Positions 9,632-55,864 are shown, counted from the first letter of the stretch. The stretch: 64,000 bases of DNA from Rhizaria sp. SCN 62-66 (GCA_001724265.1 MEDY01000660.1:124001-188000), one strand, 5' to 3'. The notes: generated from the sequence alone by a model not told the origin. Numbers and translations are program-made.

Positions 9632-10071
9632 GCTAACTGCCGAATAATTTTTAGGGTTATCTACAGTGATAATAATCTAAGGCTGCTCACTACTTTGTTT
9701 TTGCTTGATCAATTTCTTGGTCGCCTAAACAAATTCAATACTTCATGGGACGAGTAGAATTGCTTAGAAAAATAATAAAATTGAGAGAAAAAGTGAGAAA
9801 ATAGACATGAACATTGAAGCACTCCGGGAAAGTCAAAAACAACTCATATGAACACACATTTAGACACTGTGAGCATGACTCAATTCAGCAACTAGTCATC
9901 AAAGCAACACGTTGTATTACTCCATAGCCCTTGGGCCCAACGGCCTTTCTCTCACAAAACACACACTAAGGCAACAACAGCAGCAGATCAAGAGCCGACT
10001 CAAAAGCTTCTCTGTGTCGATCACAGAGCACATCAGCAGTTAGTTCAGGCAAACGCTGTGTGTTTGCGCAT

Positions 10072-22211: not shown

Positions 22212-25200
22212 TTAAGCTTTCTTGTTCTTGCTCTTACTCTTGGAAGCACTCTTTTTCTCAACATATTCCTCTTCTTCCTCCTCCTCTTCCTCGTCGTCGT
22301 CGTTGCCATCATCATCACGAGTGTTGCTCTTGCTGTTGTTGCTGCTGTTGCTGCTGCTGTTGTTGTTGTTGACATTGTTGTTCCCAGCGTCATTACCATT
22401 ATCATCGTCGTCGTCATCGTCGCTGGTCCCTGCCCACTCGTCGCTGTCGATGCCGTCGCTCTCACTGGCGCTGCTGCTGGCGAAGCTCGACTCGTCTCCC
22501 ATGCGCTCCACCTGCACCGCATCGACGTCCGCAGCGCCAAACTCGTCATCATCTTCGTCATCAGTAGCGCTACCCGTGTCATCATCATCATCATCGTCGT
22601 CGTCGTCGTCGTCGACGTCTTCATTGTCGTCGCCATCAGCCATCTTCTTCCCCTTGGCCGCTTTCCCTCTCGCGGCGGCGCTTCTCTCCGTCCCGAGCGA
22701 CGACTTCTCTTCTTCCCCAGCAGCTCTCGCCCTGCCTTTCCCGCCCGCGGCAGTTGCGCCGCCGCCGTCGCCGGGAAGCGGGTTCTTGCGCTTGCGGCCG
22801 CGCTTGCCGCCGCCACGCGGCACGGGCTTGCCGGCCGCCCGCAGCGCGCGCGCAACGGCGGCCCGCTCGCGCCGCTCGGGCTTGGTGCGCCGGTGCAGGC
22901 GCGCCGACTGGCGGCGCCGTTCGCGCAGCGCGCGCTCCTGCTCCCCGGGCCGCGCGGGCAGCAGCGGACGCAGCACGGCGTCGAGGCACTTGTCCGCCGC
23001 GGCCGCGGTCACACGCGCGAGCGACCGCAGCTCGGTCTCGGTCTGCGCGATCAGCAGCTCGGCCTGCAGCGCCAGCAGCGGCGCGGTGGCGCTCTCGAGC
23101 TCCAGCAGGCGCAGGGACTCGGCCGAGAGGGCCGGGGCTGGGAAGGAGGCGTTGACTGAAGCAGAGACTGATGATGATGATGATGAAGCAGAGACAGAGG
23201 CACTGTTGTTGGTGGTGGTGGTCGTGGTGCTGCTGTTGCTGTTGCTGTTGTCCGAGTGACGGCTTGCGTTGCGACTCGCGTTCGCAGTCGCGTCGTGGTC
23301 TAGGTGCGGGTCTAAGGGGTCGAACGCGGCCATGTCTAAGGGCTCGTGCGTCGGAGGCGGGGGGGCCACCGGCGGGCCCAGCAGACTGTCCAAGTCTAAC
23401 AGCGACGCAGAAGCTAAGCCGCCACCGCCGCCGCCGCCGCCACCACTATGCACAGGAGCGACGACAGAAGCTAAGCCGCCACGAGCAGAAGTTTGGCCGC
23501 CATCACCATTGGCATTAACGTTAGCACTCGCACGGGCGCGGTAGTTTGAGCCTGCGCTCGTGCTTGCGGTGGAGCTGCTGCTAACTCCACCAGCCGCCGC
23601 CGCAGCCGCTGCGAGAACGGCCGCGGCCGACACTCCACCCGCAGCGGTACCCGCACTGCTGCTGTTGTTGTTGCTGCTGTTGTAGTTCATGTTCGCGCGG
23701 CCGTGGGCGTGCGCGTGGGCGTGGGCGTGGCGAGCCGAGGCCGAGAGCGCCGACAGCCGCAGCAGATTGGCCCTCGCAGCGGAGCCGAAGAGCGCTGACA
23801 CCTCGGCCTCGTACGCGAGCGCGCGCCGCCGCAGCCCCAACAGCCGGCCGCCGGCTGCGAGCAGCGCTGCCGTCCCGGCCGCCGCGGCGTCGCCGTCGTC
23901 GTCCGCGTCGTCCTCGTCCTCGTCCTCGTCGCCGTCGTCGTCATCGTTGCCGCCCCCGCCGGCTCTGCCCTTCTTTGACGGCTGGGGCGGTGCCACTGCG
24001 CCCTGCATCAGCGGGTCGCTAAGCGCTTTGACCACCTCGGCGCTCATGAACACAGTCTCACCAGCATTCGCACCCGCATTCGCACTCGCGCTGCTAGAGG
24101 TGTTCGCATTGTTATTGCCGTTGTTGCTGTTTCTATTGCTATTATTAATTCTGTTGTTGTTGTTGTTGTTGGTGCTGTTAGCGTGCGCCTTGCTGCTAAT
24201 GTTGACCTTCGTGGTCCTCAGCACGGCCGCCAGCTCGCGCGGGCGAGGCCCCAGCATCGCACGGTCCAGCGCGTCGGCCACCACGAATAGCGGGCGCTGC
24301 GACCCCGCCACGGGCGCGGGCGTCGAGCGCAGGTCAAACAGACGCTGCGGCGGGTTCCCGGTAATCCGCACAGCGTTAACACCGCCGCCGCCGCCGATGT
24401 TGCCAGTGTCGCCCGCAAACGCACCAGCAGCAGCACCAGCAGCGTCACCATCATCGCCATTGTTGTTGTTGTTCCTGTCGCCGGCGCGCTAGGGCTGCTG
24501 CGGCCGGCCGGCAAAAACCTGCCTAAAGAGCGCGGAGGCGTCCTCGCGGTCGCCGCGCTGATCGAGATCGAGCCCCGAGTGCGGAAAGTAAGCGCCCTCG
24601 AGGCTGCACACGAAGCACTTGTGCGAAAGCAGGAATGTTAGCACGCGGCGCGGGTCCGTCAGGCGCCGCAGACGGAAGAACTCTTCGCGGCAGCGCTCAA
24701 GCACGGGCCACGCGGCCTGCGGCAGCAGCACGGGTTCGTGCGTGCGGCCCGGCGGCGGCGACTGCGTCACGAAGACGGTGTAGAGCATGTACACGGCCCA
24801 GATGCGCTGCTCGAGCGTCTCCAGCACGAGCATCCGGTCCGTGACGGCGCGGTACAGGTCCAGCACAAAGAGCCGGTAGTCCTCGCAGCCGGGCAGCGGC
24901 GGGTGCGCGTAGGCCAGGTTGCACGGCCGCGCGGGCACCGGCCGCCAGTGCTGCTTGAGCAGGCTCGCGGCGGCGGGCGCGGCGCGGTACGTCGAGCCGC
25001 TGCTGTGCACGCCCACGGGCGCCAGCGCGGTCGAGGTGGCCGCCGCAAAGGCGCCCGCAATGGCGGTCGGCAGAGCGGCCGCGGGGGACGACGAGGATGA
25101 CGTGTAGTAGGATGGGGAGAGCAGGAAACAGCTATGGAGCCGCGCCATACCGTAGTAGCGCCAGAGACGCTTGAAGTTCGCGTACGTGACGTGCTCGATG

Positions 25201-25250
25201 CCGTCCGGGATGGCCGCGAAAAGCACGTCAATAAGGCCAAGCTCCGCCAT
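22212..25250 (-). CDS. SNAPC1: SNAPC1 (SNAP43)-like protein; 1012 aa if the in-frame TAG at 24491-24489 is sense, otherwise 253 aa
   Basis: The N-terminal block FKRLWR..GMARLH...TLEQRIWAVYMLYTVFVTQ...VLLPQAAW...DPRRVLTFLLSHKCF resembles the SNAPc_SNAP43 domain. The frame stays open and GC-rich for 758 codons after the TAG until a TAA at 22214-22212. Confidence 0.72.
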
Positions 25251-25804
25251 CGGGACAGAGTAGCGGCAAGGCGGGGATCCGCAGAGCGCACGCGCGCGGG
25301 AAGAGAGTTGTTCTCGATGTGTCGAAGTTAAGTCAAGATGCGCTCTGTTAAAAGTACGACTGCTGGGAACAGGAAAGGATACACAGAAGGGGTTTGAATA
25401 AAGGAAAGCAACAAAACCAGTAAGTTACCAATACTCAGTCCATCGGCAGCAAGGGTTAGCGTCGTTGTAATGCTACGCAAGTGATTGAGTATGAAGATCT
25501 GGATGGCGCGTGATGGGGCTGGCGAGGACTCGAACGGCTGACGTTGCGCTTATCACTTCGAGATCACTATAACATCACCGTCGTTACTAATTGCGACAAT
25601 GCTACTCAAAATGAAGAAGATTTATGTTTTTGTTCACAAAATTATATTTTATAACTCCCACGTCTTACCCTTCTATACTCCGAATTCGTCATGTCCTCGC
25701 TTCATAGCCGTTGCGCTTGCTCTTGACACCCGCCACTCTCCACATCACATCGCCCCGCCTCGAACCGCTTTCCCTGGCGCTTTTCCGCGCACCCACTGTT
25801 TGCC

Positions 25805-28800
25805 ATGGGTTTCACCGACACCGCCGCACTGCTGGCCTGGCGCTTCCTGCTTCTTCCGCTGCTCTGGGTACTGGTTTGCGCCCCTCTGCGGCCGCGCAAC
25901 GACGCCGTGCTGGGCCTGGGCGCGCTCATTGCCGTCGCGCCCGCGCTGCTCTTCTGGATCCTCGCCTTCTGGCCGCGCGCGTTGCTTGTCGCCGCCTGTG
26001 TATGGGCGCTGCTTGCCTCGCTTTCCGTGCTGATGATGACCGACATCCCCGGCGCCACGGAAGTGCTCGTGTGCTTCCCCGGTAAGCTCGTCGGCGGCCG
26101 CCTGTGCGGTACCAAGCCCACCACAACAGTTTCCGCCGTTGCTGGAGCGGCTGCGGCGGGCACTGGCGTTGTGCAAGCAGGTGCTGTAGTGGGTTCTGTT
26201 GCTGCGGCGGGCACGCCAACAGCAGCGGCAGCAGGGAGCACAGGCGCGAGTCAGAGTGCCAGTGCCAGCGCAGTTGCTGTTGCTGTTGCTGCTCCCGAGT
26301 CTCCCATCACTCTCAACGTGGCTTCTGTTGTTATCGCCCCGTTTGCCGCCGCCTTAGGCACCCCATCCAGCGAACCTTCTTCCGTGGGCTACTCGCTTCT
26401 GCTCACAGTCGCACCCTCTGTCGCTGCTGCGGCCACGGCGGCTGCCGGCACCAACAGTAGTAGCCACATCAACGGTGGGTTTACGGTCCGGTCTGTCGTT
26501 GCAGCTGCTGTCCATTTTATGATGCCTCAGTTCGTGAAGAATCTGCTTCCTGTGTCTGCACAGGGCTCTGCGGTGAGCAACGGCAGCGGCAGCAGCAGCG
26601 CGCCTGTCTTGTCCGAGGTGACTGTCAGTGTGTACTGTGGCGACTCGCGCTCCCCGCTCGCCGCGATCCCTCTCAAGCTCAGCGCCAGCACCAGCAACTC
26701 GAACAGCACTCGCGCTAGCGCAGGCGCAAGTGTGCACGGCGTCCACAGTCTCCGCGTTGTGTTCACGCCCGATCCGGTCGCTCCGACGCTCGTCATCCCC
26801 AAAGTATCCACCATCGCGAACACCGGTGCGAGCAACAACACGACCGTGCTGTCATTGCCCCCGCAGCGCACGCTGTACCTTGTCGCCAACGCCGTTTCCA
26901 GCACCGGCACGGGCCGCTCGCCGTCGCGCGTGTCCGCTGCGCCCCTCTCACTGCGCCTGCCGCCGCTGACGGCGCCCGCGCGCGCGCTGGGTGCGCCGCT
27001 GTACCACGAGCAGCGCACGGTCGCCGCGCGCGCGCTTGAGGCTCTCGCATTTGCGGTCGCGGGCGGCGAGGGCGGCTGGGGCGCCGGAGTCACGAGCAGC
27101 AGCAATAATAGCAATGTGAACTCTAGTAACAACAGCAATAGTAACAGTATGTCGACTGCTGCTGCCGCCGACGGCGTTCGTGCCTCGACGCACATGACGG
27201 GCACCCACGTGACTGTGGCGCTGGACGTGCCGTGGGGCCGTCTTGCGTGCCTGCTCTGCGACGACAAGACGCGCACCGTCGCGTTGGCTTCGTTTGCCGT
27301 GCTGTCCAGCCTCACTGCGCAGCGCCGGGTGACCGTGAGCAGGCGCGGTGTCATGGCCGCTGCGGTGGCCACGGCTGCGGCGGCACTGGTTGCGCGCCGT
27401 TGCGCCCCCGCGCACGTCGGTCAGAGCGCGAACAGCGCGGGCAGTTGCAGCAACAGTAGCAATAGCAATGCTGCCGTTGCGGGTGCCAGCGCAAGTGCGA
27501 ATGACGAGAGCGGCTTAACTTCGAGGTATCCTCAGCTGTTGTCGCTTCTCCCCGTGTTGATTCCCAGCGCTGGCGCCGGCGCTGTTGCTGCTCTACAACA
27601 ACAGCAGCAGCAGAGTGTGCGCACGTCTCGTTTTTCGACTCCGCTTCGGACTGCGACGACTGGTATCACGAGCAATATTGCGAACAACAACAGTAAGAAC
27701 AATGACGCAGGCGTTGGTGCTGCTGTCTCGCGCCACGAGAGCGCGCTGGGCAACGGCTCCGGTCAAAGTCGCGGCGGCAGTGGCAGTGCTTGTCGCTACC
27801 TGAGCACGAGCTCTGGTCTCATCTCGGTTTACGACACGACGAGCAATAATGTTCGGATTGACTCGGATTCCGCCTCAAGTGTGGCCGACACAGAGACTGT
27901 GCACGGTGTCCTGTTCGCGAATGCTGCTTCTGCTCACAGCAGCGCTGCCTTGGTGTCACCGTTCTCAACTGACTTTGCCCCGTTTCTGCTTACACCACTG
28001 CCGCTCGCCAACTCAGCAGCTGTTGGCGCAAACGCGGTTGAGTCAAGCGGTCTGCTCGTCTTTGGCGGTGTAAGTACCCCCTTAGACGCTGCCGGTGTTA
28101 GCGCGCGCGTGCTGTCGTCGGTGGCTGACATGACGCTGTTCCGCTCAGTTGCAACTACAACCCCAGCCGCTAACTCTGACAACCGTGGAGGCAATGCGAG
28201 CGCCAGTGCTGGCGTCACAGGACTGCCACTGACCACGAACGACATTTACCTTCTGCTGTCGATCGCGACTTCTCTCTCGACCCTTGTACCGTCTCACTCG
28301 GCGGCTCAGACCGACAGCGATGACTTGTGGCTCACGGCTACGGACTTCGCAGCCGCCGGCGGGCTGCACGTGCTGCTCCTGGGCGCCACCGCAGAGCCCC
28401 CCGTTGCGGCCGCCGCACGCGCGCTCGCCCGGGTCGCCGCTGCTGCGGCCGCGGCGGGCGCGTTCGTGCCTCCCGGCGCGGCACCGCTGGGGGCCCTGAT
28501 CGAGGCAGTGACGGGAACGCAGCTGCCGCAGCCGCAGCCGCAACCGCAAGCGCAGGCTCAGGCTCGGGCTCAGGAGCAGTTGTCGCCGGTGTCGCAGCTT
28601 CAGCTCCAAAATGGCGCGAGATCTAATGCGAACGTTCCTGAAAATAATGCTGCTACCGCTGCTGCCGCTGCCGCTGCTGCAGCAGCTGCAAGCCCGACAG
28701 TTACTGCCAGCACAAACGCGATTTTGCCGCCTGCCGCCAGCCCCGCTGCTGCTGCTACTGCTGCTGCTGCTGCGAGTCAGAGTGCTGTCAGTCCCGTGCT

Positions 28801-29320
28801 GGCTTCTGCGCCCAGTGCAACAGCGGCGGCTAACGGCGCTAGCACTCCGTCTCTGCTGGCGCGTCCGCTGCCGCTTTCGTTCGGCCCCGCCGGCGCGGCT
28901 ATGTCAGTGCCGATGCCTGCGCCGCCGGTGTTCACGCCCCCGGCGCTGCCGACGTTCGCGTCGCCGCTCTCGTTTCGCCCCAAGGCCACTGCCAGCATCA
29001 CCGCTTCTACAGCCGCTCCAGCCGCTCCTGCTGCTTCTGCGGCGAGCGCTGCGGCCGCTGGGATGAAGGCGAGTGTGGACACGGTTCGTGGGGGTGCCAA
29101 TTCTGCCAAGGACGACGATGACGAAGACGATTTCGAAGATGACGAGGATGCCGATGGCGGCATTGACCAGGGTGCTTAGTAGGAAGTTGTAATGTTGCAG
29201 CGTCGCAGCGCTCGTGGCCGCGCCCCTCGCGGCGCTGCTGAGAGCACTAGCGGCGCAGGCGCTGCGTCGGCAACTGCGACGCGGCGCAGCTCAAGGCGCG
29301 CTCCCCCGAAGGCTGATTGA
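25805..29320 (+). CDS. Hypothetical membrane protein (about 3 N-terminal TM helices, then Ala/Ser-rich low complexity); 1171 aa if TAG TAG at 29177-29182 is sense
   Basis: Hydrophobic N-terminus and a long open frame. After TAG TAG, 45 more GC-rich sense codons run to a TGA at 29318-29320, where the sequence turns AT-rich. Confidence 0.65.
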
Positions 29321-30215
29321 GCGATGTGTGATTTGAAAATTAGAGACGAGTGAACCTTGTAATTATTGATTAAGACGGCCACCAAGAGTGTTTTTTTTTT
29401 CCATACAGAATTTGATTGAAAGATAACTTTTGTATAAAGCCATATTCGGCAGCACTGTCGTGCGTGTTTTGTCTGACGCGATTTGTGTCTTTGGATTGAT
29501 TGTTCCAAATATACTTGTTGATTGTGATGATGCGACCTCACTGCAAATCGTTGTAAAAACGACGTAATTACAATTGGAATTTGTAAAACATAGTCACGAA
29601 GTCGCTCACAACAATCAATAACAGTAGCGCACAGCGCACAGCGTAGAGGCGTAGTGATTCTAGACACTACACAATTCATTTGTTCAAAAAACAGTGATTT
29701 AGATACTGCTCTTAACGCATTCAAGTAAATTGCATCTTTTGTGCAAATTCTTGCAAAAACAAAAAGACAAGTGATCCTTACGTGAAAAACTGTGCAGGGG
29801 CGTGCGGACACGTAAGGACGAAACACATAATAAAAAAACGAATAAGTGATAGCTAGGTTGTACAAGGATAAGATGTCAAAACATACACATAAACACACAC
29901 ACCAAAGAGGAAGATCTAACAAAAAAAACACAGCAGATTTCTTTCCTTTGTGTGACCAAAATGGAGTTGCAGTTGTTGTTGAAGTTGGCTTGTGATTCAA
30001 CCCCCAGGACTGGGAGCGAAATCTGCAAGAGATACAAGTGTTTAAAAACTAAATAAAATGATTATCTTCTGAAAATTACTAAGTAAATATTTTTTCGTTG
30101 CTCCAGTCTTGTTTGAAAGGTCAATCAAAGCAAGACAGGATTGCGCTGCGGCCGAGCTTTATGTCGCCGCAGCAAAACTCGCGATCTATGCTACGCTGTT
30201 TCATTATTGCAAGCT

Positions 30216-33200
30216 TTACAAGTGCCTGGTCCAGCGCAGGGCAGCCGCAGCAACACTACGGGCGTCGTCGTCGTCGTCTTCATCCTGGGCATCACGACTG
30301 TGGTGGTGACCGTGAGCACCAGTGCTGTTGTTGATGATGTTGTTGACGCGGGAGAGGCGGTGGCCGTGAGCAGGCGGAGACGCGCCGACAGCCACGACTT
30401 GTAAGTCGGCGTCAAACTGATCATCTCCATCCTCGTCCTCATCATCGTCGCCGTGATCTTCATTCTCGTCGTCGTCGTCGTCGAACTCGTCTTCGTTGTC
30501 GTTATCGTCGTGATCATGATCGTCGTCGCCCTCGCCGTCGAGAACGTCATCATCGTCATTGTCAATGTCGATGCCATCGTCCTCGTCGTCAGAGACAGCG
30601 ACGGTGCCCATGCCCGTGCCCGTGTTAGAGCTGGCGTCGACGTCGCGGTACAGAGTGGGCGCACCGCGGCCCAGCCCAAGCCCGTCGTCGTCGCCGTCGC
30701 CGTCGTCGTCATCGTCGTCATCATCATCGTCATCGTGGTTCTCTGCAATGCCAGAGTCGTCGTTGTTGCTGTCGCGACCGCGACCGTCGTCGTCGTCCTC
30801 CTCCTCTTCGTCGTCGTCGTAATAGTACCCACGAATGCCCTGAGCTGCCGCGCGCTGCTGGCGCGCGAACTGCTATCTTCCGTGGATGTGCTGCGACTGC
30901 GGCAGGTACCCGCGGGCCGCGGCGGCTTGCCTCGACAGCGTGCGCGTCGTCGTGATCGTGAATTGCTGTGGGCGCGAGGCCACGGAGACGTCGTCCGTCA
31001 CTGCCATGCCGTCGGACGAGTCAGAGTCTTCGTCACTGTCGCCGTCGCCGTGCTGGTGCGGACGGCGAGAGGGCATGTCAAAGCCGTTGACGTCATCGTT
31101 GTTGTCGCTGTTGCTGGAGCCACCGATGTTGAGGCAGCCTAGACGCGCGGCAAAGCGGGACGTGACGCGGTCTTGGTCGTCGCTACTGTCATCATCGCCG
31201 CTATCGCCGTCGGTGTTGTTGTCTTGAACAATCACGCTCGGCTTGACCTTGCTCATGTTCTTGCCACCATTAGCAGCGGCCGTGGCGTCAGCCTTGGCCT
31301 TCGCATCAGCCCGGGCCTTCGCGGCAGCCGCTACCTCAGCAGCGGCAGCGGCCTGAGCGGCGGCGACCTTCGCCGCGATTGCAGCCGCGGTCGACGCCAG
31401 GACGACTTCCTCGTCCTCGTGATCGGGCACCGACATATCGCCCTCGCCGTCGTCGTCATCGTCGTCGTCGTGGCGATGTAGATGGCCCGCCACACCGCCA
31501 GAGCGGCCGCGGCGGCCGCTGCCGTCGTCATCGTCGTCGTCATCAATGTCACTGCCGCCGCCGCCGTGGCCGCGGCCGTGGCGCAGCCCGCCCGCGCCGC
31601 CGCCGAGCCCGGGGCCGACGGTCAGCACGGTCTCCGTCACCGTGCGGCGCGGGAAGCCGAAGCGCACGCCGGGGGCCGCGGCGTTCGCGGCCGCTGCGGG
31701 GTGCGGGGTCGGCGCAGGCGCGGCAGGGGGGTCGCGTGGGGAAGCAAGGACGGCGATCGAGGGGTTAGTGTCGACGGGCGAGGGCAGCGTGGCGTTTCCG
31801 AAGAAGTAAGGATGTGCAGCCGCGGTGTTGCCGCTTAGTCCATGAGAATTCGCAACATTGCTAGAGGTCGCAGTCGCCGCGCTGGGCGAATGCTGATGAC
31901 TGTGTTGAGCCACTGGCTGCTGCTGCTGTAGGTCTGTGGCGTTCGAAGTCTGCTTGTTGAGACTGGGAGGCGTGTCCACACTGAATCCCACTTCCGGCTG
32001 CTGTTGTTGTGACTGCGTCTGCGCAAGCTCGGGCTGCGTGCTCGGCTGCTGAGGCTGTGTGACAAGGAGCTTGTGCGCGATTGTTTGTGACTGTAATGGC
32101 GGCAACGATGTCTCGACGTGTGTCTTTGAGCGCTGGATCTGCATCCGCCCTGCGCCAGTCGCGTACGCACTCGCATTGGCACCAGCAGTAGCGCCGGTGA
32201 GAGTGTTCGCGGGGCTCGCAGGCGTGCCAGGCGCGCCAGACGGCACGATAGGAGTGGCGAGCGGCACATACGGCGACTGTGGCGCCTGCGACTGCTGCGC
32301 TTGTTGTAGCGCAAGAGTCATGTCAGCAGCGGACCGCGGGGTCGCGCTAGCAGCGTTCGCTCTAGAGGCGATGACTGTGTTGCTGTTATTAACATCAAGC
32401 AGTGGCGAGTCGATACTGCCGAGCGCGATGCCCGTGTCGATGCCGCTGCCCTCGCCGTCGTTGTTCACAATGATCGGCGCAGGCCGCGCCATCCGCGTCC
32501 TGTTCGCTCCCGCGCTAGGGTTCGCAGTGGGACTTGCGGCCATAGCGAGCGAGGCAGCAGGGGAAGCAGCGGCGGCAGTGGCGACGGTATAGGGGAATGA
32601 GAGCGTGTCGGTGGCGGCGAACGAAGGCTCGGTCAAGCCACTGGTGTTGCTCTCCAGCACAAGCTTGTCGCCAGTGCCGTGTCCGTGTCCGCGGGCCTCA
32701 CTGTCGGGCCCGCTCGTAGTGTAGCTGAAGCTGTTGGTGTTTGTGTCCGGCACGGTCAGAAGCGCCGGACCGCGGCCGAAAGTAGCGTGGGTTGCAATAG
32801 CAGCGCGCGGCTGCTGGTGGTGTTGCTGCTGGGGGCCGTGGCCGTGGCTGTGGCTAGTCCCGGTGCTGTTCGAGCTGGACGTGTGGGCAAAAGCGAGGCC
32901 TGAGGCAAGCGAGCCGTTGGGAGAGGACGAGATGGTCGTGCTGCTCGTGTTGTGATTGTTGTTAACACTACTGCGGTTGACCTCAGCAGTCGCAGAACTC
33001 ATCGCGGTGGCGTTGACGCTGTTGTTGTTGTTGTCGCTGTCACCGTTGCTCATCACGATCGCGCGGGGACGCAGCCACGCGTCGCTGGTCCGCACCACAG
33101 AAGCTGCAGCGCCGTGGTTGGCGTTGTTAGACTGCGGCGCCAGCGCGAGCGGCCGCGCGGGCCCGGGCACTGGCGAGGCCGGCGAGAGCGAGAGCGAGAG

Positions 33201-42200: not shown

Positions 42201-45200
42201 GTGGTGCTGCTTGCGCTGCTGCTTAGAGCGTTTCTTAGTGACGTAATAGGCGTTGTTGTCATCGCTGTCGCTGCAGTCGTGGTCCCGGTCGCTCTCGTAG
42301 CCAATGAGAACGTTGCCGTAGATGTCGCGGGGCGGGTCTTCGTGCTGCTCGCGGTCGCCGCTGTGCTGCGGATCACGGTCACGGTCACGATCGTGCTGAG
42401 TGTAGTCGCCACTATCTTTGCGCTCGAGCTCCAAGCTGTTGCCGCGTTGCAGCCCACGCTTCTCTAGGTCTTGCTCTTGATCCTTGTGCTCTTGCTGCTG
42501 CTGATGCTGCTGCTGCTCCGCTGCGGTTGAGGGGCCGGGAGTGCTGCCGCGCGAGAGCGAGATGTGGCCGAGGTCACGGTTCTGCTGGTACCGGTCGCCA
42601 CTCGCGCTGTCCACGGCTCCGTGGCCGCTGTTCACGTTTGCGCTCGCGCGTGCATTCACGTTGGTTTTCGCGTTATTACTGTTATCATCGGTATCAGGAT
42701 CTGAGTCGCCAGACGCGACAGCGGACTTGGCCACTGTCGTCGGCACGTTGTGCACGTTGCCAGAACTCTGGGTCCGCGCACCAGCGCCGAGCTTCGGACT
42801 CGGCTTGAGCCTGCCGCCGAGGCTCAGGAGCCCCGCCGCAGTGCCCAGCGGGGGGCTGCCACTCTTGCTATTGCCGGCAGCACAGTCTGCGGTCGCAGCG
42901 GCGCCGGATCGGCTGTAACTGCGACTCTGGCTGTTGCTATTGCTGTGGCTGAGCCCAGTGTGGGCAGCGTGGTGGCGCGCTTTGAGGCTCGCACCCTTGA
43001 AGCTAGGAGAACCGCGATACAGCGGGTTTTCAGTTGCATTTGCAGCTACAGCTGCAGGAGAGCTTGTGTTTGCCTTAGCGGGCACGGTGACTGTGGTCGT
43101 CGCCACGGTTGTCGTCGTCAGAGTCGTCGTGGTCAAGGTAGCGCCAGCCCCGTCGGCACCGCTGCTGGACTCGTGGCCACTGGCGCGGGTCTCGCGACCA
43201 CTGGCACGGCTCGAACTGTTGTGGAGACTCCCGCCGAGTGTTTTACTGCCAGCCGTGCTGTGTTGCGCGGTCATAGACGCGCCCGCGGTCATCACCAGCC
43301 CGCTGCCAACGTGGTCAGAACTCTCAGCGCTCTTCGAGACGTCCCCAGTGTAGTGACGGCAGTCATGACGGTGGCGACCTGTGTGACTGTGAGCCGCGCA
43401 GCGACCGTGGCCGTGCTTGTGCTGGTCGTTGTGGCCGTGCTTGCAGTGGTTGCGGTTGTGCTTGCTGCTGTTGCTGCTGCTAGCACCGACAGAAACACCC
43501 TTTGACGGCAGCACACCCTTTAACTCAGCATCAGCGTCGATGATCTCAATCACACACACACCCTTACCAGTCGCACCTCCACTCGCCGACGCACTTGTGC
43601 TCACAAACTCAGCGTCACGCACACCAGCATGAGTGCTGCTAGTCGAAACGATGTGGCCGTTGGAGATCGCCGCGGCATCGGCGGCCCGATCAGCGCTGAC
43701 CTTGGCCGCCGCAGCAGCCTTCGCAGTCGCACTCCTGAACCGCAGCGCAATGCGCACCGCGCCCTCGCACACGACACACGCGTGGTCGCCGCCCCTGCGA
43801 CTGTGTGCAGCTCCAGCAGAGTGACCGTGAGCGCCTGCGTGACTGTGAGCTGCAGCGGTTGCAGAGCTCATGTCCGAGTGGCTGTGCGCGCGAGGCACAC
43901 CGCGCAGCAGCGCCAGCAGCAGCGGGTTGCCGTGCGGCGACGTGCGCTGCGGCAGGTCGATCAGCGCGGCCAGCAGAGTGCCCGCGCTGCCCGCGACGAG
44001 CCGCGGCCACAGGGGCGGCACTGTCACGGCCACCGCCGTCGCAGTTGCGGTGACGGTGATCACGGTCGTGCTGCCGCTCGCGGTGCTCTTGCCGCCAGAG
44101 ATACGACTCGCGGTGTCGGTGTCGGCATTCAGCACGGCCATCTCGATCGAACTGCCGTTGTCCGCTTTGCCGGAACCGTTTGCGTTGCTCAGAGTTACAG
44201 TCTTACCAGCAGTTGCTGAAACTGTGTTTGTGGTGGGAGCCTTGCTTTCGTCCTCGGTCTTCGAGGTCGTCGTCGTCGTCGTCGTCGTCACTGTCGTGGT
44301 GGTGGCTGTGAGCGCCTTGGCCGTGCACCGGGCCTCGAGCACAATCGCCAGCGGCTCCAGCACCAGCGCGTGCACGACGATCGCGCCCACGAACGACACT
44401 GCCCAGCCCCAGTCGCCGAGCGGAGCGCCCAGCACGGCGCCCGAGCCCGCGTCCACCGCGGGCGCGAGGGTCGGCAGCGAGACGAACGCGATGACCGGGA
44501 TCACGAGCCCCGCCAGCCAGCCGAAGACGGTCACCGCTCCAGCAGTGTACAAGCCGGCCGCGCGGCCGCACATGGGCACGGTCACTGCGGTGCTCGCCGC
44601 GTTGGCGCCATCCGCGCCGGCTCTAGAAGCCGCTCCCTGGCTCTGCGCCGCTGCCGCAGTCGTGGACGTGGCTGTGGCGGGGTGGCGCGAGCGGCTCTGT
44701 CCGCGGTCACTGCTCTGGGCATGATCGCGGTCGCGGTCACGACTGCGCCCGCGGCCGCGCCCGCCCTGGCGGCTGCTGGGTCGGCTCGAGGGCCGGCTGC
44801 TGTCGCCAGTCGACTCGTCGTAGTTCCCGTGAGAAGCGCCTCGCTTCGCACTGTAGTTCTTGCTGCCGCTGCTGCGACGACGGGAGTTTTGCTGCGGATC
44901 GTAGTTGTTGTCGGTGCGACTGTGACCGCGACTGTTGCCTCCAGTGTCGACGCCGCTCGTGTCACTCATGTCGCCGCCGCTGCTACTGCCGCCGCCGCTG
45001 CCGCCGCCGCTGTGGCCCCTGCGGCGCGCTGCCCCTGTCCCGCCACCCTCAGTGGCGAGCGCGAGCGCCGGAGCGCCCAGCAGCAGCGCGGCGTCGGTCG
45101 TGCTGCTCTCCCAGTTGGCGCACGACTCGCTGGCGTCGCGCAGCACCAGCGGCGCCTGCCGGCCAGAGGCTGCGGCCGACGCGGCGGAGACCACCTTGGA

Positions 45201-48200
45201 CGCAGCGACGGCCGCGGCCTCAGCGGCAGCTGCGACGCTTGTGTGCGCACCTGCCGCGTTGGAGTGCTGGTCGTTGTTGCCGACGGCAGCGAAAGGACCG
45301 TGGAAGCGGCCGACGCCGCCTGCTGGCGCGCTGCAGTCGCCCATGTTGCCGGCCGCCGCGGCCGCCGCAGCCGCTGTGCGCGCGTTGGTCGCCGCTGTGT
45401 GCCGCGCCCGCGCCAGCGCCACTGCGCGCTCGTGCGCCGTGACGCCCGCGGCGGCGGCGTTCGTGGGCGCCGGCAGTTGCGCGGCGTCGTAGGCGACGGC
45501 GTTGTGCCACCATCCCTGCTGCAGCCACGCCTGGACAGGCCCGCGCATCGCGGCCTGCTCGCTCACGGTCACCGCGGCCGCGCGCATGCGCTCGATCGAC
45601 GCCGCCACAATCGCGCCGTTCGCGCTGCTCCGCGCGTTGCCGGCCGAGGCCGGGAGCGGGGCTCCGGCGAGGGAGAGCTGCGTCTGCGCCTGCGCGTGCT
45701 GCGTGATGGCGGGCGACAGCAGGTCCGGGTTGGCGCATACGATCCAGAAAGCTTCGCACAGCAGCACGAGCACGGGGCCCGGGTGCAGCGGCGGCAGCTG
45801 CAGCGGGTCCAGCAGCAGCGCGGCGCGCGAGAAGCGCGACTCGGCGTCCGCGCCCGCGGCCGAGGCCGAGCCGAGGGAGCACGAATCCGTCACCACCGTC
45901 GAGCAGCTGGTGCGGCCGCCGTGGCCGAGCAGGCTGCTGGCGGCGGCGCAGGCAACGCGCGCGCTCTCGCAGCAGCTCGCGTCCGCATCGCTGGCCGTGG
46001 CGTGCGTCGTTGCCGTGCTAGTCGGGTGCAGCGAGTGGAACACGGCCCGCAGCCGCCGGCGGAGGCGCTCCAGCGTGGCTGCACCTGCGCCGGCGGAGAC
46101 AGCGGCCTGGCTCTGCGACTCGCCCGCGGCGGGCGCGCGCGCAAGAGTGAGCGAGAGGTCGCTGTAGAGCAGCAGGGCCGATAACCGGCGCAGCACGGCA
46201 GCGCGCTCTTTGACAATGCTGCTGTTGCTGCGATGGAGCGGCGGACTTGCGTTTGCGCTGTGGTTCGCTCTAACAGCCGCAGATGCAGCAGCAGCCGGGT
46301 GAGTGGCAGCACCGTCGAACAGAGGACTAGAGCCCGTGCCAGCAAAGTTGCCGTTGCTGTTGTTGAACGAGTTCGCCGGCGAGTTGCTGTGGGCGCAGGT
46401 GTGCGCTATGGGCAGCGCAGAGGGCAGCGGCAGCACGCAGAGCTCGTTGCTAGCAACTACACTGCTCTCAACAACAGCAGCAGCAGCAGCGGTTGCAGCA
46501 CTACCTTGCGCGGGTTTGGCGTTGACAGCAACACTAGCAGCAGCAATGCTGCTGTTTTGGTCATGAGCATTTTCGGACGCTCTGGCCGCATTGCCAACCC
46601 TGGCCTTGCTGACCACATTCGCCTCCTCGCCACCGGCTGCGGCGCTCTGCTGAGGCGCCACAGCAGCAACGGCGACCGCAGGCGCGGGCAGCGCCGGGAG
46701 CCCGATGCCGCCGGTCTGCGACACGGCGCGCGCCCACGACGTGACCTGCGCCTCGTAGGACGACCAGCCCTCGATCACGCGGCTTAGCTTTGAGTTGCGG
46801 CTAAGCTTGGACGCACCCGCAGTGAACATGGCGTCCTGTTGCTGTTGCAGCGACTGAGGCTTGTTGCCGCCACCATTGTTGTTCGCAGCAGCGCTCGCAT
46901 TGTAGTCGGACGAGCTGCCCGCCGTCATATTGTTATTGCTATTGTGAACCGGGAACTCGTCGTTCCTGTTCACAACGCGCGAGACGCTGCTGCGGCGGCG
47001 CCTCGCCCCGCCCGCGCCGCCGCCCGCCCCGCCGGCGCTGCTGGCGGCGCCGCCGGTGCCGGCGTTCCCGAGCCCCGCCCTGGCCTCAACCACGGCCTTG
47101 TAGTAGTTAACCACGAACCGCACAAACCGCGCACCGCCGAGCCGGCCCGAGCCCAGCGCCCGCGCGAGCGCGCGCGCCACGGCCCAGGCCGCGACGGCCG
47201 CGGCGACGGCGGTGATGGCCACGCGCGCGCCGACGGGCAGCACGGCCGGCGCCCAAAGTGACAGCGCGTTGCCCAGTACCGAGGTGACGGCAAAGGCAAC
47301 CGAGAGCGCGGCCGCCGCGGTGAGCGCGCGGTCCAGCGAGCGGTACGCCGCGGCCGGGTAGCGTGACGTGATCGAGAGCCACGGGTGCGCGCGGGCGAGC
47401 GCTGGCCACAGCCACGCCCAGCCGCGCAGCCCCGACAGCGTCGGGGTGACTGTGAGCGAGGGGTCCGTGCCGGAGGCGCCCGCTGCGGGGGCCGCGGAGG
47501 CGGGGTCGGCCGCGGCGGCGGCGCTGCGGCCGTCGCGGGGGACGTTAGCGCTGTCGTCGCCGCCGCCACTGCTGCTGCTGTTGTTGTTGTTCCCAGCAGA
47601 GGTGACCACGGAGGTCGACGAGGTTGTCGCCGAGCCAGATGTGGTGCTCGTCGTTGTTTTCGTCGTCGTCGTCATGGACGTCGTGATGGGCTCCCAGGTG
47701 CGCAGCCCCGTGAGGGAGTACGCGTAGGCGTACCGCCTCCGCTGGAAGTACAGCGGCCCGTGCTTGATTAGCGAGGCCACGTGCGCTTCGACGGCCTGGA
47801 GCGCGCAGAAGTCGAGCCAGGCGTCGCGGGAGACTGCGTAGAGACACAGAAAGAAAGAGATGAGGACGAGAATGGCAGCTGTTATGCCTGTCTCGAGTAC
47901 CGCGTCCAAGGCTAAGGTGGCAGAGCGAAAAGTGTTTGAAGTATCGGGAAGTGAGTGAGGAGCGCAATTAACGGGGATATAAGAGCTATATCTACACGAC
48001 ATACAGAATTAAACACTCGTTTCATTCGTCAAATGTGCAAGATTTACTAGGCCACCTATTGGTTCGCAATAGCAGTGTAGATGTAAAGCAGGAGTCGTGT
48101 CCGAGTGTCAAGCTCAAGGTTTGAAGCAGAGCGTCTGGTGAATAGTGCTTGCACGTACATGACCCTCGAACGGGAGAAATCAGTGCCATGACAACCCCCA

Positions 48201-48237
48201 AGCCAAGCCAAACGGGCCGGACAGGGAGACCGTGCAT
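30216..48237 (-). CDS. Giant polycystin-1 (PKD1)-like multi-pass membrane protein (about 5924 aa); exons 48237-48159 and 47911-30216, in-frame TAG at 30875-30873
   Basis: A signal-like first exon MHGLPVRPVWLGLGVVMALISPVRGS joins in phase 1 via a GTACGT...TTAG intron. HPWLSITSRYPAAAYRSLDRALT and WAVSFVGAIVVHALVLEPL resemble PKD1-family TM2 and TM5 motifs. The rest is low complexity; TAA stop at 30218-30216. Confidence 0.6.
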
Positions 48238-49291: not shown

Positions 49292-51001
49292 TTAGTGCGC
49301 CTTGGGCGCATCGTACTCGTCGAGGCGGTTGATGAGCGTGTCAGCGTAGTTGGGCGAGTAGTACTGCACGATATCCGCCGGATACAGCGAGTTGATCGTA
49401 GCGATGTACTCCTGCAGCTTGCCCGTGGGGTCAGAGTCGCGCAGCTCCTGGATCTTCTGCAGGCCGCGAGAGAGCACGAACGAGCGGCGCGCGCCAGCGT
49501 TGTTGGGCAGCACCTTGGCGAACTGCTGGATGATGTACTTGACAATCTTGGGCGGCGCGTCGTGCAGCAGCGGCTCGAGCGCGGGCAGGTGCGTGCACTT
49601 CTCCAGCACGCTCTTGAGCGCGCGCTGGGCCTTGAGCTTGAGGTCCGGGCTGGAGCGCGCGTCGGCAAAGGCGTCGATGAGGCGGCGCAGCACGTCGGCC
49701 TGCGCCAGCGCCTTGGCGTGGTCGGGGCTGTGGCGGCCAATCTGGCCCAGCGACCAGGCCGCCGCGGCGCGGATGTGGTCCTCCTCCTCGGAGACGAGCG
49801 CATCCTTGAGCGGCAGCACGCCCTGAGGAAACAAAAAGAAACAATATGAGGTTTGGCGACGTATATGTGAGGATGGAGAGTTAAAAATAAGTCATACAAT
49901 AAAAAACACAGAAAACACCTTAAAAAGTTAGTTTTCGATTCATGCGTCCAAATATGACAGAGATATGCTTTGTTTCAAATGGCTGTCCAGACGTACCTGG
50001 TGGACGATGATGGCGAAGGCGAGGGTCTCGCTGAAGGCGGCGATGAAGCCGAGCGCCATGATGCCGGGCAGACGGGCCGCGCCCTCGGACTGGGCCGTGT
50101 AGTCGATCAGCGCGGCGTGGCCGCCGGCGTTGACGATGAGCTGCGCGAGCTCGGGCGTCTGTTTGGCGACCTCGCGGATGCACGTGGCGGCGTTGCGGCG
50201 CACGACGAGGTCCTGGTCCTTGAGGCAGAGGAAGACGTTGGGGAAGATCTCAGCCTCAACCACAACCTCGGCGAGGTCCACGGAGTGCTTGGCGACGTGG
50301 GAGAGACACGCGCAGACCTGGCGCTTGAGCTTCGAGTCGGGGTGCTGAACGAGGGCCGAGAGGTAGGGCACGGCGCCCTGGTCGACGACGACCTGCGCCA
50401 GCTCGGGCGTGTGCTTGCAGATCTCGGACAACGTCGAGGCCGCAATGCGCTTGAGCGACAGCTCGGGCTCCTGTACGCAGAGCACGAGGGGCGCCACGGC
50501 GGCGGCGTCGACGACGTACTGAGCGAGCTCGGTGTTGTGACGCGCGATGTAGCCCAGGGCCCACGCGGCGGCCTCCTTGACAGAGGGCTCGAAGTCAGAC
50601 AGACAAGCCACGAGGGCGTCAAGAGCGCCCACGGTCTCCACAACGGTCTTAGCGAGCGGCGCGGAGTGCTTGGCGACGGCCTTGAAGACGAAGGCGGCCG
50701 TCTTCTTGTAGAAACGGTTCTTCTCGCTGATCGAGTGCACGAGCTGGGGCAGCACCTCGGACGCGCACACGGCCTCGGCGACAGCCTCGGAGTAGTTGGC
50801 AAGGCGGCCAAGCGCCAGCGCGGCGGACTGCTGAATGCTGGGCACAGTGTCGATGAGAAGCGGGCGCAGGAGAGCGAGGACACCGTTAGCGAGAAGCATC
50901 TCGATGTTCTGCTCACGGTTTGCGAGGTCCGCGATGGTTTGCACAAAGGTCATCCGCGCAGTCTGGTACTGGCTGAAGACCTGGAGAACCGCTCTGCTCA
51001 T
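49292..51001 (-). CDS. SPAG6: PF16/SPAG6 axonemal central-pair armadillo-repeat protein (511 aa); exons 51001-49997 and 49822-49292
   Basis: MSRAVLQVFSQYQTARMTFVQTIADLA, IQQSAALALGRLANY, NRFYKKTAAFV and YPADIVQYYSPNY are diagnostic. Phase-0 intron; TAA stop. Confidence 0.97.
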
Positions 51002-51517
51002 TGTGCAAGACGAATTCTATAGCGCGGCAAGAAGTACAAATCAGACAGAAACGGTAGGGCGGTGCAGGGCAAGGGGAAAGTGAGTGACGGATGAGGTTGG
51101 TGAGAGACAGTGGTTGACGGCTAAGAGGGCAATAGTTGCGACACTAAACCAGCACAAGATAAGAAACTGAATTATCGACACAAATAAACACGCGTATGTC
51201 CTCCAATAAATGAGCAAAACTCCATTAAATTACGAGTGCTCTCCCCAGAATCCACAATTTTCAAAACCTTGATGGCCGTTACTGGTCACCTTAGCCGTGC
51301 GACCGTGAGACGATGAAGAAGAAGAAGAAGTAGAAGAATGCATAGACGGGGGGCTGTCGATTGACCGACCGAGCGACTCCAAAGATGTATGCCTCCTGCA
51401 TGTTATCATCCGTTAATAGACTTTACGAGAAACGAAATTGGGATTTCTTGCTATATAAGTCAATATTCCAACTTATTTCTCTCCCATCTTATTTCCTTGT
51501 TGACGAACTCAGAGTGC

Positions 51518-54500
51518 ATGCGCAAGTCCTTGCACTGCGCTGTCTCGACGGCTCTCCGGGCTCTCCCGTCCGTACATGCAGTCCCAGCATTGCCTTCCGT
51601 CGTCGGCCCCGCCATCCCGCTTGCACCGAGCTCCATCCTTGCAGCGCGCTCGCTTTTCCCCACAGACGCATCCTGCTCTGGCGTCACGACTGCCAGTCGC
51701 AGGCACTACGACAGCAACCGCAACCGTACCCGTGAGACCTTCGGCAACAACAACGACGAAGACTTGTTTGGCTCAAGCTCTCGCAGTTCTACCACTACTA
51801 ACAAGCACAATAACAGTACTATAAGCAGCAACAGGAACCGTGAAGCGTTTGGCAACAACGATGATGACGACCTGTTTGGCTCAAGTGATCCTGCTACGAC
51901 TACTGCTGCTGCTGCTGAGTACGCTGCGTCTCTCTCGCGCTCCAACAACAACACTTCTGATGACCGTAACAGCCACTACATTGGTGACGATTACGATGAC
52001 GAACTTGACCACGAGTAGCAACAGCAAGAGACCGAGACCGACGAAGGCTATGACTTCCTCTTCGACACAAAGAACGGCCAGGCTCACAACAGCAATCCCA
52101 CCGCCAGCAACAGCAGCAGGCACGTCGCGAACAACGCCGACGGTGCCGATGCCACCGAGAGTGCCGAAGACTACGCCGTGACGGTTACCGCGGCGTTCCT
52201 CTCCGGCGACCGGTCGCAGCTCTCTCCGGACACGCGCTACGCGCTCGCAGGCGCCGGTCTCGCCAAGCCCTCTCTGACCGACGCCGCGCTGCTCGCCACG
52301 GGCGGCCTCGCGGCGCTGCCCCTCACCGGGCTCGGGGCCGTCGTGCAGCAGCGGTCGCCGTGGCTGCCCGCGCGCCGCAAGATTATCCCCATGCCGCCCG
52401 GCGTGCCGGCCGCCGCCGTGGCCGCGGTGGAGCAGTTCGAGCGCGCGCTGCCGTTCGCGCTACACGAGAACACCACGCGCGTGCTCGGTTTGCCCACCGC
52501 GCTCGGCGGCTTCGGCTTTAAGCAGCTGACGGCGGTTCAGCTGCGCACGCTGCCGCCGCTGGCGCAGGGCCGCGACGCCCTGATCCGCGCACCCACGGGC
52601 ACGGGCAAGACGCTGTCGTACCTCATCCCGGTTGTGGAGCAGCTGCTGCGGCGCCGCGTCTCGCCCACACAGCGCAAGTTTAGCGCCGTGATTGTCGCGC
52701 CGACGCGCGAGCTGGCGCTGCAGATCTCGGCGGCGGCGCAACACCTGCTCGCGCTGCACGGACGGCTGGCGCAGAGCCAGTACCGCGTGGCGACGCTCAT
52801 CGGAGGCGGCAGCTCGCTGCACGAGGATCAGCAGCCGCTCATGTCGGACGACCCGGCGATCGTGGTGGGCACTCCCGGACGCCTCGCCGCGCACATCGCG
52901 CAGACGCCTGGGTTCCGCACGCGCTGCCGCCACGCGAGCGTGCTGGTGCTGGACGAGGTCGACTACTTGCTCGCGCTGGGGTTTAAGAACGACCTCACGG
53001 CCATCGTCGGGGCTGTCAAGGCGCAGCGGCAGACGGTGATGCTGTCGGCCACGCTCTCCCCGGCGGTGCGGCTGGTCGCGCATTACGCGCTGCGGCGCGG
53101 GCATGACGTGCTGGACCTCATCGCCGACCCCACGGGCAGGGGCGCGGAGGCGCTCAAGCAACGCTTCGAGCAGCGCGTGCGGGAGGACCAAGAGGAGCAT
53201 TACCGGCAATACGTGCAGCAACAGGAAGAGCAAGAGCAGGGTGTCAGTAAGGGTGATGCTGAAGCTACTGATGCGGTCGAGCAGCAGCCGAACGGGACCG
53301 AAACTGATGCTACTGCCACTGCGACTGGGACTGCGCCCGATGCGAGCAAGTCGCGCGCGCCGCGGTTCGGGCTGGAGCATACGGGCGAGTTCGAGGAGCT
53401 CAACGAGCAGGACGACTGGAGCGCCGACGCCGCGGCCACCGTGCGCGCCGCCATCCGCCAGCAAAACAGCGCCTCTGCTGCCAACGAGGACGGCGACGCT
53501 GTCGATGACGACGCCGAGTTTGGAGAGGACAACGAAGACGGCGACGGGCTCGTCGGTTACGACAGTGAAGAGGCCGCGCTGGCAGCCTACGTCTCCGAGA
53601 CGCCCGTGACCGCGCGCCAGATGATGGTGACGGCGCCGATCTCGGAGCAACTGCCAACGCTGGCGCGTCTGTTCGACGACATCGGGGGCCGGTTCATGTT
53701 CGCACGCCAGTCAGTCTACGACTCGCTGCACGAGCAGTCCGACGCCGAGGGGGCCGATGGGGGCATTGCTCACCGGACTGCTGCCGCAAGGGCCAATGAC
53801 AACGCCAGCGACAATGCGAGTGCTAGTGCGGAGGCCGAGGCTGCAGAGGCGGATGAGGCGGCTGCGTTTGTGGCGTGGCGCGCGGGCCCCGGCCGGTCGG
53901 GCAACGCGCCCGTCGCCAACATCAGCCCGTCACAGTCGCCTTTCCCCGTGAATAACTACAACAACAACAAGAGCGGTCTCACTGGCGATGACGACGCGAT
54001 TCCGATGACACACAGCGACCTCAACGGCGGCATCCGCGGCACTGGCCACAACGGCAAGGTTTCCCGCAAAGACCGCCGCGAAGCCGCCGCCGCTGCCGCT
54101 GCCGCTGCGGCCAAGCTCCAGGGCGCTAATGCACAGGCGCAGCAGTCTCAGTCAGAGGACGTGTCCGAGAGCGAGACCGAATGGGAGTCGGACGTCGAGT
54201 CCGACTACGAGCTCTCCACACCCGGCGCCGCCACGGCCGCGATCTTCGCCGCGGCCCGCACCTGGCGCGATCGCGAGCGGCTGCTGGACGCCACGCTGCC
54301 GCGGCCGCCCAAGATCGTCGTGTTTTTGCCCACAGCGCGGCTGGCGCAGTTCGCGGCGGCCGTCTTCCGCCGCGTCCTCGCCCCGCACCCGGAGCCGGCG
54401 CCCGCGGACCTGCGCAAGCGCGCGCTGGCGGAGCGCGCGCGGCGCGAATCGCTGCGGCACGCGTGGGGCGGCGTGCTAGAGCTGCATTCGCGCCGCTCGC

Positions 54501-55864
54501 AGACGCAGCGCGTGCGCGCCGTGGAGGAGTTCGGCCGGAACGCCTGGCGCGGCGGGGCCGTGCTGTTCGCCAGCGACGTGGCATCGCGCGGGCTCGACTT
54601 CGACGACGTGGACCTGGTCGTGCAGGTGGGGCTACCGCCGTCGCGCAACCAGTACATCCACCGCGTCGGCCGCACCGCGCGCGCGGGCAAGGACGGCTCG
54701 GCGCTGCTCGTGGTCGCGCCCTACGAAGCCGACGCGGCGGGCCGCATGGTCCAGGGCCTCCCGGTCACGGACGTCGAGTTGGACGGCGTCGAGCTGCCCG
54801 CGCTTGACGAGCTGTTGCAGCGCGCCGAGGCCAACATGAGCCAAAACGCTCTCACACACAATGCGAGTGCTATTGTGACCGATTTCTTTACCGACCAACA
54901 AGAGCTCGCTAAGTCCGCTGATTCTGCTGATTCTGCTGATGCTGAGCAGGAGAACGAGAACGAGGACGAGGCTGCGGGCGGCCAGGAGCTGTGGGACGGG
55001 GTCGTCGCCCGCGCCTGCGTCCCTCTGCTCATTCCGCCCTCCGCGTCGGCTACAGAGCGCAGCGCCGTTCTCTCCGAGCTCCGCGGGCAAGTCATGTCCG
55101 CGCGCACGGGCGCGCTGTGGACCGAGGCCGACTCGCTGGAGCGCTCGCTGCGGTTGACCCTCGCGCGCGTGCTGGTCGACGAGACGCTGGGGTTGCATGC
55201 AGACCGCGCGTGGGTGTCCTGGCTGGGGCTACACCGCGTGCGCAAGCTCCGCTCCAAGGGCGGCGACGTGCTCTCGGTGCAGCTTGAGGCTGTCAAGCGG
55301 CCGCAGACTGCGGGCGTGCCCACGGTCGCGGAGCTGGTCCCGTTGGCCCGGGAGCAGGCGGGCGCGCTCGGCCTGCGGGGGCCCTTCGGTGACGGCGACA
55401 TGCCGGTGCTCGCGCCGGCGATCGCCGCGAAGCTCGGGCTCACCGGCGTCGCCACCAAGGCCGCGTCAAGTGCTTCTACAACGGCAGCAGCGGCAAAGGG
55501 CGGCGCGACAGAGAGCGCGGCGGCCAGTGCGGCTGCGGTTGTGTCTGGAGAGGAAGAGGATGAGGACGCAGTGAAGGAGAAGGGCTTTGTGATCGGCGAG
55601 CCCCGCAAGTGGGGCAAGTCGATCAAGGAGCAGGGCGGGAAGAAGGAGCGCCGCGCCCGGTGGGGCAAGCAGCAGCGCGAACTCCGCAACAACTTAAACA
55701 ACAACGCGAACTCTCACGGTGATGATGAGTACGGGAGCAGCCAGCGCGTGATGGGCAAGAAGACGCTGACGGCGCAGCGCAGGGAGGTGATGAAGGGCTC
55801 GGAGCAGATGAGTCGGCCCACGCGCGGTAGGACCGGCGAGGTCCATTACAAGTGGCACGCGTAA
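51518..55864 (+). CDS. DEAD-box RNA helicase, Mss116/plant RH25-26-31-like, with a predicted mitochondrial presequence; 1448 aa through the in-frame TAG at 52016-52018
   Basis: Motifs GFKQLTAVQ (Q), APTGTGKT (I), PTRELALQ (Ia), TPGRL (Ib), DEVD (II), SAT (III), VVFLPT (IV), SDVASRGLDF (V) and YIHRVGRTARAG (VI). The upstream ORF MRKSLHCAVSTALRAL...SRRHYD is in the same frame; TAA stop. Confidence 0.88.

Follow-up and report, generated by a model that had tools for sequence, protein, structure and literature searches.

In a 64,000-nucleotide stretch of DNA from Rhizaria sp. SCN 62-66 (GCA_001724265.1, MEDY01000660.1:124001-188000; hereafter the window, in whose coordinates all positions are given), UAG appears to be a sense codon that is efficiently decoded genome-wide, with UAA and UGA still acting as stops, and we put the probability of this reading at roughly 0.62. 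Five in-frame TAGs occur in four genes, here called A to D: one in the SNAPC1-like gene A (24489-24491, minus strand), a tandem pair near the end of gene B (29177-29182, plus strand), one in the giant, low-complexity gene C (30873-30875, minus strand) and one in the N-terminal extension of the DEAD-box helicase gene D (52016-52018, plus strand). An earlier reading of the same DNA, made from the letters alone (the sequence-only reading), had proposed all five, and each was found at the position proposed, in frame with a long open reading frame (ORF). As that reading also held, the frame stays open past the TAG for 758 codons in gene A, 45 in gene B, 218 in gene C and 1281 in gene D, closing at TAA 22212, TGA 29320, TAA 30216 and TAA 55864, respectively. 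Translation must pass TAG 24489 and TAG 52016, because protein sequence conserved with orthologues lies downstream of both, out of reach of any in-frame ATG start. The proposal that UAG is a sense codon is thus upheld at two of the four sites (genes A and D) to the extent that ribosomes must translate the codon or get past it in some other way; for genes B and C no homologues were detected.

Gene A (22212-25250, minus strand) runs from ATG 25250 to TAA 22212 and comprises 1012 codons if TAG 24489 is read through, with a Pfam SNAPC1 domain at residues 126-218, upstream of the TAG. A HMMER search with the read-through protein returned 12 proteins at E<=0.001, one of them the window's own N-terminal piece and two of them orthologues, P0004 (538 amino acids, aa) and P0005 (435 aa). 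Both orthologues carry, within one chain, the SNAPC1-like domain plus three blocks which in the window lie downstream of the TAG, and the alignment is collinear either side of it. Block 1 (LFDLRSTPAPVAGS...AVL; 24213-24341, minus strand) stands 50-92 codons past the TAG. When the post-TAG ORF is compared alone, this block matches P0004 at 38 of 43 residues (88%, E=3e-20) and P0005 at 72% identity (E=9e-15); a second conserved, C-terminal block (AELLIA...LDAVLRPL...; 22842-23084, minus strand) is also collinear, with E-values of 3e-8 (P0004) and 7e-4 (P0005), and P0005 has a further collinear match at E=0.013. Because the first in-frame ATG past the TAG, at codon 78, falls inside block 1, this block could not be made by separate initiation. 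The gene A protein is about twice the length of its orthologues (1012 versus 538 and 435 aa), owing to lineage-specific low-complexity inserts with runs of Asn, Asp, Gly and Ser; two of these insert regions are matched collinearly by RNA contigs (23132-23501 and 23775-24028). A 253-aa product terminating at TAG 24489 is on record in seven contigs.

The second instance is gene D (51518-55864, plus strand), identified as a DEAD-box helicase by Pfam. Two proteins were returned by a homologue search with it: the window's own piece, and P0002 (1336 aa), a relative in which the N-terminal extension runs on into the helicase without a break. The codons from TAG 52016 to the first in-frame ATG beyond it (codon 125, 52391-52393) hold a conserved block (52196-52393, plus strand) which aligns with residues 195-255 of P0002 (E=1e-7), collinearly and directly before the helicase core; no in-frame ATG separates the TAG from the block. 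On the other side of the TAG, the ORF at 51518-52015 (plus strand, from ATG 51518) has an in-frame coding score of 0.16, with the other frames negative, and is the probable true N-terminus of the helicase. Its first 49 residues (51518-51664, plus strand) are basic, rich in Ala, Ser, Leu and Pro and free of acidic residues, resembling a mitochondrial presequence, and the helicase may be organellar. Standard gene callers split the genes of this organism at TAG, and the database holds pieces of 253 and 1228 aa as separate proteins.

Splicing is an unlikely way around these two codons. The spliceosomal introns of the window (about 14) are AT-rich (26-41% GC) and about 135-225 nucleotides (nt) long, with a CAG|GTRCG donor and, in the dynein gene, a YAG acceptor. 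The sequence-only reading had stated that no GTRCG donor or AT-rich intron surrounds any TAG; GTRCG pentamers are in fact present within 300 nt of each, so that the statement fails in its literal form, but none of them follows CAG and none adjoins an AT-rich tract. None of the TAGs is enclosed by an intron of the local type, and neither TAG 24489 nor TAG 52016 could be taken out by one. Two individual candidates were considered and set aside. An intron removing TAG 52016, with donor GTACG 51919 and the TAG itself as acceptor, would be 100 nt long and not AT-rich; its donor would lack a preceding CAG, and its removal would disrupt the conserved frame. A 30-nt mini-intron around TAG 24489 (CAG|GTTTTT...CCCTAG) would preserve the frame, but is unlike the roughly 14 introns seen (135-220 nt, 26-41% GC) and is judged unlikely. 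Introns were seen neither in the four TAG-bearing genes nor in a 5.6-kb exon at 13395-18974, and are dense in the dynein gene described below.

Contigs from four sequencing runs (X2, X3, X4 and X5) were compared with positions 21800-31800 of the window, and show that the TAGs at the three sites inside this stretch are not assembly errors. Runs X2 and X3 belong to different studies and years, have identical contigs and near-identical depths, and are probably one data set, and so one confirmation; their contigs at 28785-29381 and 30744-31498 show no differences from the window, and depth is present at 24516. Run X4, from a separate study, represents a strain about 1% divergent. It keeps TAG 24489, in a contig (24185-24927) whose three differences lie elsewhere, and TAG 29177, and it covers 30873 (contig end 58 nt from 30888) with no difference at the TAG among the differences listed. 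In the polyA-RNA run X5, a collinear 287-nt contig (29077-29363) keeps TAG 29177 unspliced. Sites 24489, 29177 and 30873 thus recur in other assemblies, and 29177 recurs in RNA, the RNA contigs listed spanning neither of the other two. Position 29180, where the second TAG of the tandem begins, is C in both X4 and X5, giving TAG CAG in that strain, so that the second TAG represents a recent change from or to CAG in the window strain. Around it, the X4/X5 strain differs from the window by five T>C differences within 17 nt (29180-29196), directly past TAG 29177, with one strain difference in the preceding 450 nt and none in the remaining tail; this cluster looks like a single multi-base mutation event. 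Downstream of TAG 24489 at least three strain differences are listed, two of them synonymous, which are too few for a codon-position pattern. Gaps in X5 RNA depth at 25140-25807 and 29482-30149 were not used as evidence, as contigs cannot show transcript ends. DNA of relatives was found in none of the metagenome contigs (queried with the gene A N-terminus and P0002), genome contigs (alignment A2 and dynein exon) or viral contigs (P0001).

These observations bear on the view that the TAGs are true stops or defects, whether in truncated or split genes, pseudogenes or misassemblies, or as codons removed by splicing or editing. To judge from codon usage, nonsense mutations in such a genome would most often be to TAG, by C-to-T change in the abundant CAG, and the cluster at 29180-29196 attests to local multi-base mutation. 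Set against this, frames remain open with coding signal for 218-1281 codons, and in two of them conserved blocks lie where initiation at a downstream ATG could not produce them; independent assemblies and a second strain have the TAGs too, and TAG 29177 is present in RNA as well; and suitable intron signals are absent. We consider this explanation very improbable overall, and in genes A and D neither chance nor assembly error, a separate downstream gene or a pseudogene can account for the TAGs.

That UAA and UGA terminate translation was borne out at all 12 re-modelled gene ends. The 14 ends counted previously (8 TAA, 6 TGA) were an overstatement: five of them (3675, 8040, 10383, 13395 and 49940) are intron stops, 12-75 nt past a GTRCG donor. 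The re-modelled set comprises seven TAA ends (4561, 19684, 49292, 56242, 22212, 30216 and 55864), five TGA ends (3949, 9098, 10072, 11807 and 29320, of which 11807 is the least certain) and no TAG. All 12 are followed by another in-frame stop at a distance of 3-83 codons, and the in-frame coding score beyond the stop is negative at nine of nine ends scored (-0.35 to -1.14). Beyond the TAGs, the corresponding scores are 0.30 (gene A), -0.08 (B), 0.38 (C) and 0.36 (D), positive in three of four, and the length of open frame past the four TAG sites exceeds that past the first nine TAA/TGA controls (Mann-Whitney, one-sided p=0.0028). In a two-sided scan, the 131 stop codons in the window with 60 open codons on each side were scored for in-frame coding signal. 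Within the sense frame of genes, signal on both sides was seen at TAGs only, 52016 being flagged and 30873 and 24489 positive on both sides, and no TAA or TGA among the 131 had it. Two other flagged stops, TAA 30402 and TAG 31479 (both plus strand), lie antisense to the acidic gene C; the positive codon score of the plus-strand ORF beside the former (30405-31142) was discounted, as this ORF reads poly-Val/Ile and is a mirror artefact of the acidic tail.

The same gene ends speak to the suggestion that UAA and UAG are both reassigned and UGA is the sole stop, as in Amoeboaphelidium protococcarum, an inhabitant of engineered water systems, with sense TAA going unseen here through the rarity of A-ending codons. 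At a CAA:CAG ratio of 107:478, about one sense TAA would be expected beside five TAGs, so that its absence is uninformative, and a TGA follows within 4-21 codons of four of the seven TAA ends, six of which (all but that of the Arm-repeat gene) were measured. However, seven of the 12 genes reach TAA where the coding score collapses (negative at all six scored), in the AT-rich sequence past TAA 56242 and TAA 22212 an in-frame TGA is not reached for 62 and 83 codons, and no in-frame TAA has two-sided coding signal in a sense frame. Little credence can be given to this code, which we rate as extremely improbable.

Genes B and C lend themselves to a different proposal, namely that UAG has a context-dependent dual meaning, sense inside genes and stop near 3' ends or in tandem. 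In gene B (25805-29320, plus strand), the tandem at 29177-29182 is followed by a tail of 45 codons (29183-29320, plus strand) up to TGA 29320, with a score of -0.08, compared with 0.26 upstream and -0.35 to -1.14 past true stops. A homologue search with gene B recovered only the window's own product, and none for the tail. The tail score, lying between coding and untranslated sequence, favours such a proposal, as do the five T>C strain differences in the first 20 nt of the tail, which are mostly non-synonymous. Gene C (30216-48008, minus strand) is a single frame of 5,711 codons, or 5,930 with its tail, made up of Ala, Ser, Asn, Gln and Asp runs, and a Pfam scan of four segments recognised no domain; for its C-terminus no homologue was found among 990 candidates of 3261-10378 aa, shorter forms being outside the search. 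Its tail (30216-30872, minus strand; 218 codons past TAG 30873) is Asp/Glu-rich, as is the composition upstream, and scores 0.38 against 0.40 upstream, with poly-Val/Ile on the reverse strand; an RNA contig lies within it, at 30236-30528. In the ambiguous stop/sense codes of Condylostoma, Blastocrithidia and the karyorelicts, the same codon is coding internally and terminates near the 3' end. Here there is one possible terminating site (TAG TAG, -0.08) beside a coding-like tail of 218 codons. With a single candidate terminator, a gene C TAG that stands 218 codons from its end before coding-like sequence, and no homologue found for either tail, dual meaning appears distinctly improbable.

As to the amino acid, Gln is plausible and would be the most likely and most economical assignment. 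It is favoured because each TAG could arise from CAG, the most frequent Gln codon, by a single C-to-T transition, because of the TAG/CAG strain difference at 29180, and because a CAA CAG CAA run follows TAG 52016. The 15,467 modelled codons include 478 CAG, 107 CAA and 5 TAG, TAG thereby constituting five of 590 Gln-type codons. Taking TTG:CTG (95:551) as the guide, about 82 TAGs would be expected were it a neutral first-position synonym of CAG, so that TAG is about 16 times rarer. The sequence-only reading had described low TAG usage in low-complexity sequence, and this description was accurate: five are seen against about 82 expected, all in low-complexity stretches.

One rival that draws on these features is a standard code with efficient, site-specific readthrough, in which these TAGs are decoded by near-cognate tRNAs, tRNA-Gln(CUG) for example. 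It would account for TAGs that are very rare and confined to low-complexity stretches, and for the C at position +4 of three of four sites, a count given earlier and found to be right; moreover, the tandem of gene B may terminate. Programmed readthrough of the tobacco-mosaic type has the consensus UAG-CAR-YYA, and two contexts, TAG CAG TTC (30873) and TAG CAA CAG (52016), partly resemble it. The full CAR YYA context is present at none of the four sites, the others being TAG TAG GAA (29177) and TAG CGC GCC (24489), the best-supported site, which does not fit CAR-YYA. In programmed UAG readthrough, as here, a standard stop is passed and the protein extended; in two of the present genes, however, it is conserved core sequence that lies past the TAG, not an optional extension. 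Further, readthrough would be required by four of the 12 genes whose ends were modelled in these 64 kb, in two cases for conserved sequence, and no gene here terminates at a TAG before clearly non-coding flank. We regard readthrough as unlikely.

A number of observations nevertheless weigh against reassignment, and should be considered together. The evidence base is five TAG codons in one 64-kb window. Neither of the two alignable TAGs is in conserved sequence, both 24489 (within an insert of about 50 residues that P0004 and P0005 lack) and 52016 being in lineage-specific low-complexity inserts, and none of the five stands in a conserved alignment column. No TAG occurs in the conserved-domain segments tabulated (homogentisate dioxygenase, OST3-like, Arm and two dynein exons), and this absence, together with the rarity of TAG, would also fit occasional tolerated readthrough. 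A tRNA scan of the window found no tRNA genes, and hence no cognate tRNA there, and no eRF1 gene was recognised among the window ORFs scanned against Pfam. TAG 52016 lay outside the stretch compared between assemblies, and the ORF upstream of it, despite collinear DDLF-type motifs, has a non-significant match to P0002 on its own (E=5.3). The absence of TAG from 12 modelled ends, a small sample set beside the ambiguous tail of the gene B tandem, is weakly significant, with about a 3-7% chance if TAG makes up 20-25% of stops, a usual share. Tandem stops are what a real terminator often looks like, and TAG TAG with its weakly coding tail looks like one; a sense codon used at 0.03% would very rarely form such a pair by chance. 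Finally, the TAG/CAG difference at 29180 would likewise be neutral in a 3' untranslated region. We favour reassignment of UAG because, failing that, one third of the genes whose ends were modelled would have to rely on readthrough (two for conserved sequence), and because none ends at TAG with plainly non-coding flank.

Were UAG reassigned, it might be decoded by a cognate tRNA with anticodon CUA, permitted by weakened recognition of UAG in eRF1, or both. As a sense codon, TAG would be either young or still selected against, given its shortfall of about 16-fold relative to a neutral synonym. A further reading, which we hold to be unlikely, supposes a reassignment in its early stages, in which UAG is already Gln inside genes and perhaps still terminates in contexts such as the TAG TAG of gene B; the lineage, a wastewater eukaryote not sampled before, GC-rich and with introns, would then be an ambiguous intermediate. 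As UAG makes up about 1% of Gln-type codons and is restricted to low-complexity protein segments, this case could show the first steps of reassignment, with a bearing on codon-capture versus ambiguous-intermediate models.

The organism is known here from metagenomes only. The stretch 22000-31500 was detected in bioreactor, wastewater and activated-sludge runs from seven studies, one of them a polyA metatranscriptome. Exons are GC-rich, with GC3 of about 0.6-0.95, and intergenic DNA and introns are AT-rich. A dynein heavy-chain gene (59232 to the window end at 64000, plus strand) is densely cut by AT-rich introns of 135-192 nt, and intron-bearing stretches elsewhere, AT-rich and with the CAG|GTRCG donor, are found at 3601-3820, 7980-8179, 10221-10438, 10509-10733, 13253-13394 and 49823-49996. 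The Pfam scan of ORFs also identified homogentisate dioxygenase (HGD; 4561-6153, minus strand), an OST3/6-like gene and an Arm/HEAT-repeat gene. The sole Rfam match is a 5S rRNA gene (9534-9655, minus strand; 56.6 bits), dispersed between protein-coding genes.

A change in the meaning of UAG is nearly always accompanied by one in UAA, and cases of UAG alone are confined to a handful of lineages (PMC5304391; PMC11687900); codes in which UAG alone is sense, with UAA and UGA as stops, include those of Iotanema spirale (Gln), a rhizarian (Leu), Scotinosphaera (Ser) and some ciliates (PMC5304391; PMC11687900). In Iotanema spirale, 204 in-frame UAGs are spread over 126 genes, and many of them stand at Gln columns that are hyperconserved (Panek et al., 2017; PMC5304391). 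The window resembles it in belonging to a non-ciliate eukaryote in which UAG is probably sense and UAA and UGA terminate, with no apparent UAG terminators among the genes examined (PMC5304391), but differs in having five TAGs, all of them outside conserved columns, among about 15,500 codons, and in its GC-rich exons and CAG|GTRCG introns. In the rhizarian exLh, UAG is Leu, frequent and found at conserved Leu positions, with UAA in 56 and UGA in 15 cases as stops (PMC5304391); UAG-only reassignment with UAA and UGA as stops would be shared, whereas the one polymorphism in the window is TAG/CAG and does not point to Leu. Phyllopharyngean ciliates and Protocruzia have also reassigned UAG alone, to Gln in some lineages (McGowan et al., 2024; PMC11687900). 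The window was judged not to be ciliate-like on its GC-rich exons, introns of 135-220 nt and a contig of at least 305 kb. Amoeboaphelidium protococcarum, where TAG and TAA are Gln and UGA is the sole stop (as cited in PMC6299283 and PMC5304391), is a non-ciliate microbial eukaryote that reads stops as Gln, as may be the case here; in the window, however, TAA closes seven of 12 genes with loss of coding signal, and UGA is not the only stop. A literature search whose coverage left out most subscription journals turned up no GC-rich eukaryote from wastewater described as reading UAG as sense. If true, the present reading would add a further non-ciliate case, and an additional independent origin, of UAG-only reassignment. 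The code variant itself is already known, and the notable feature here is its low usage: UAG is frequent and at conserved columns in Iotanema and the rhizarian exLh, whereas in this lineage it is rare and peripheral.

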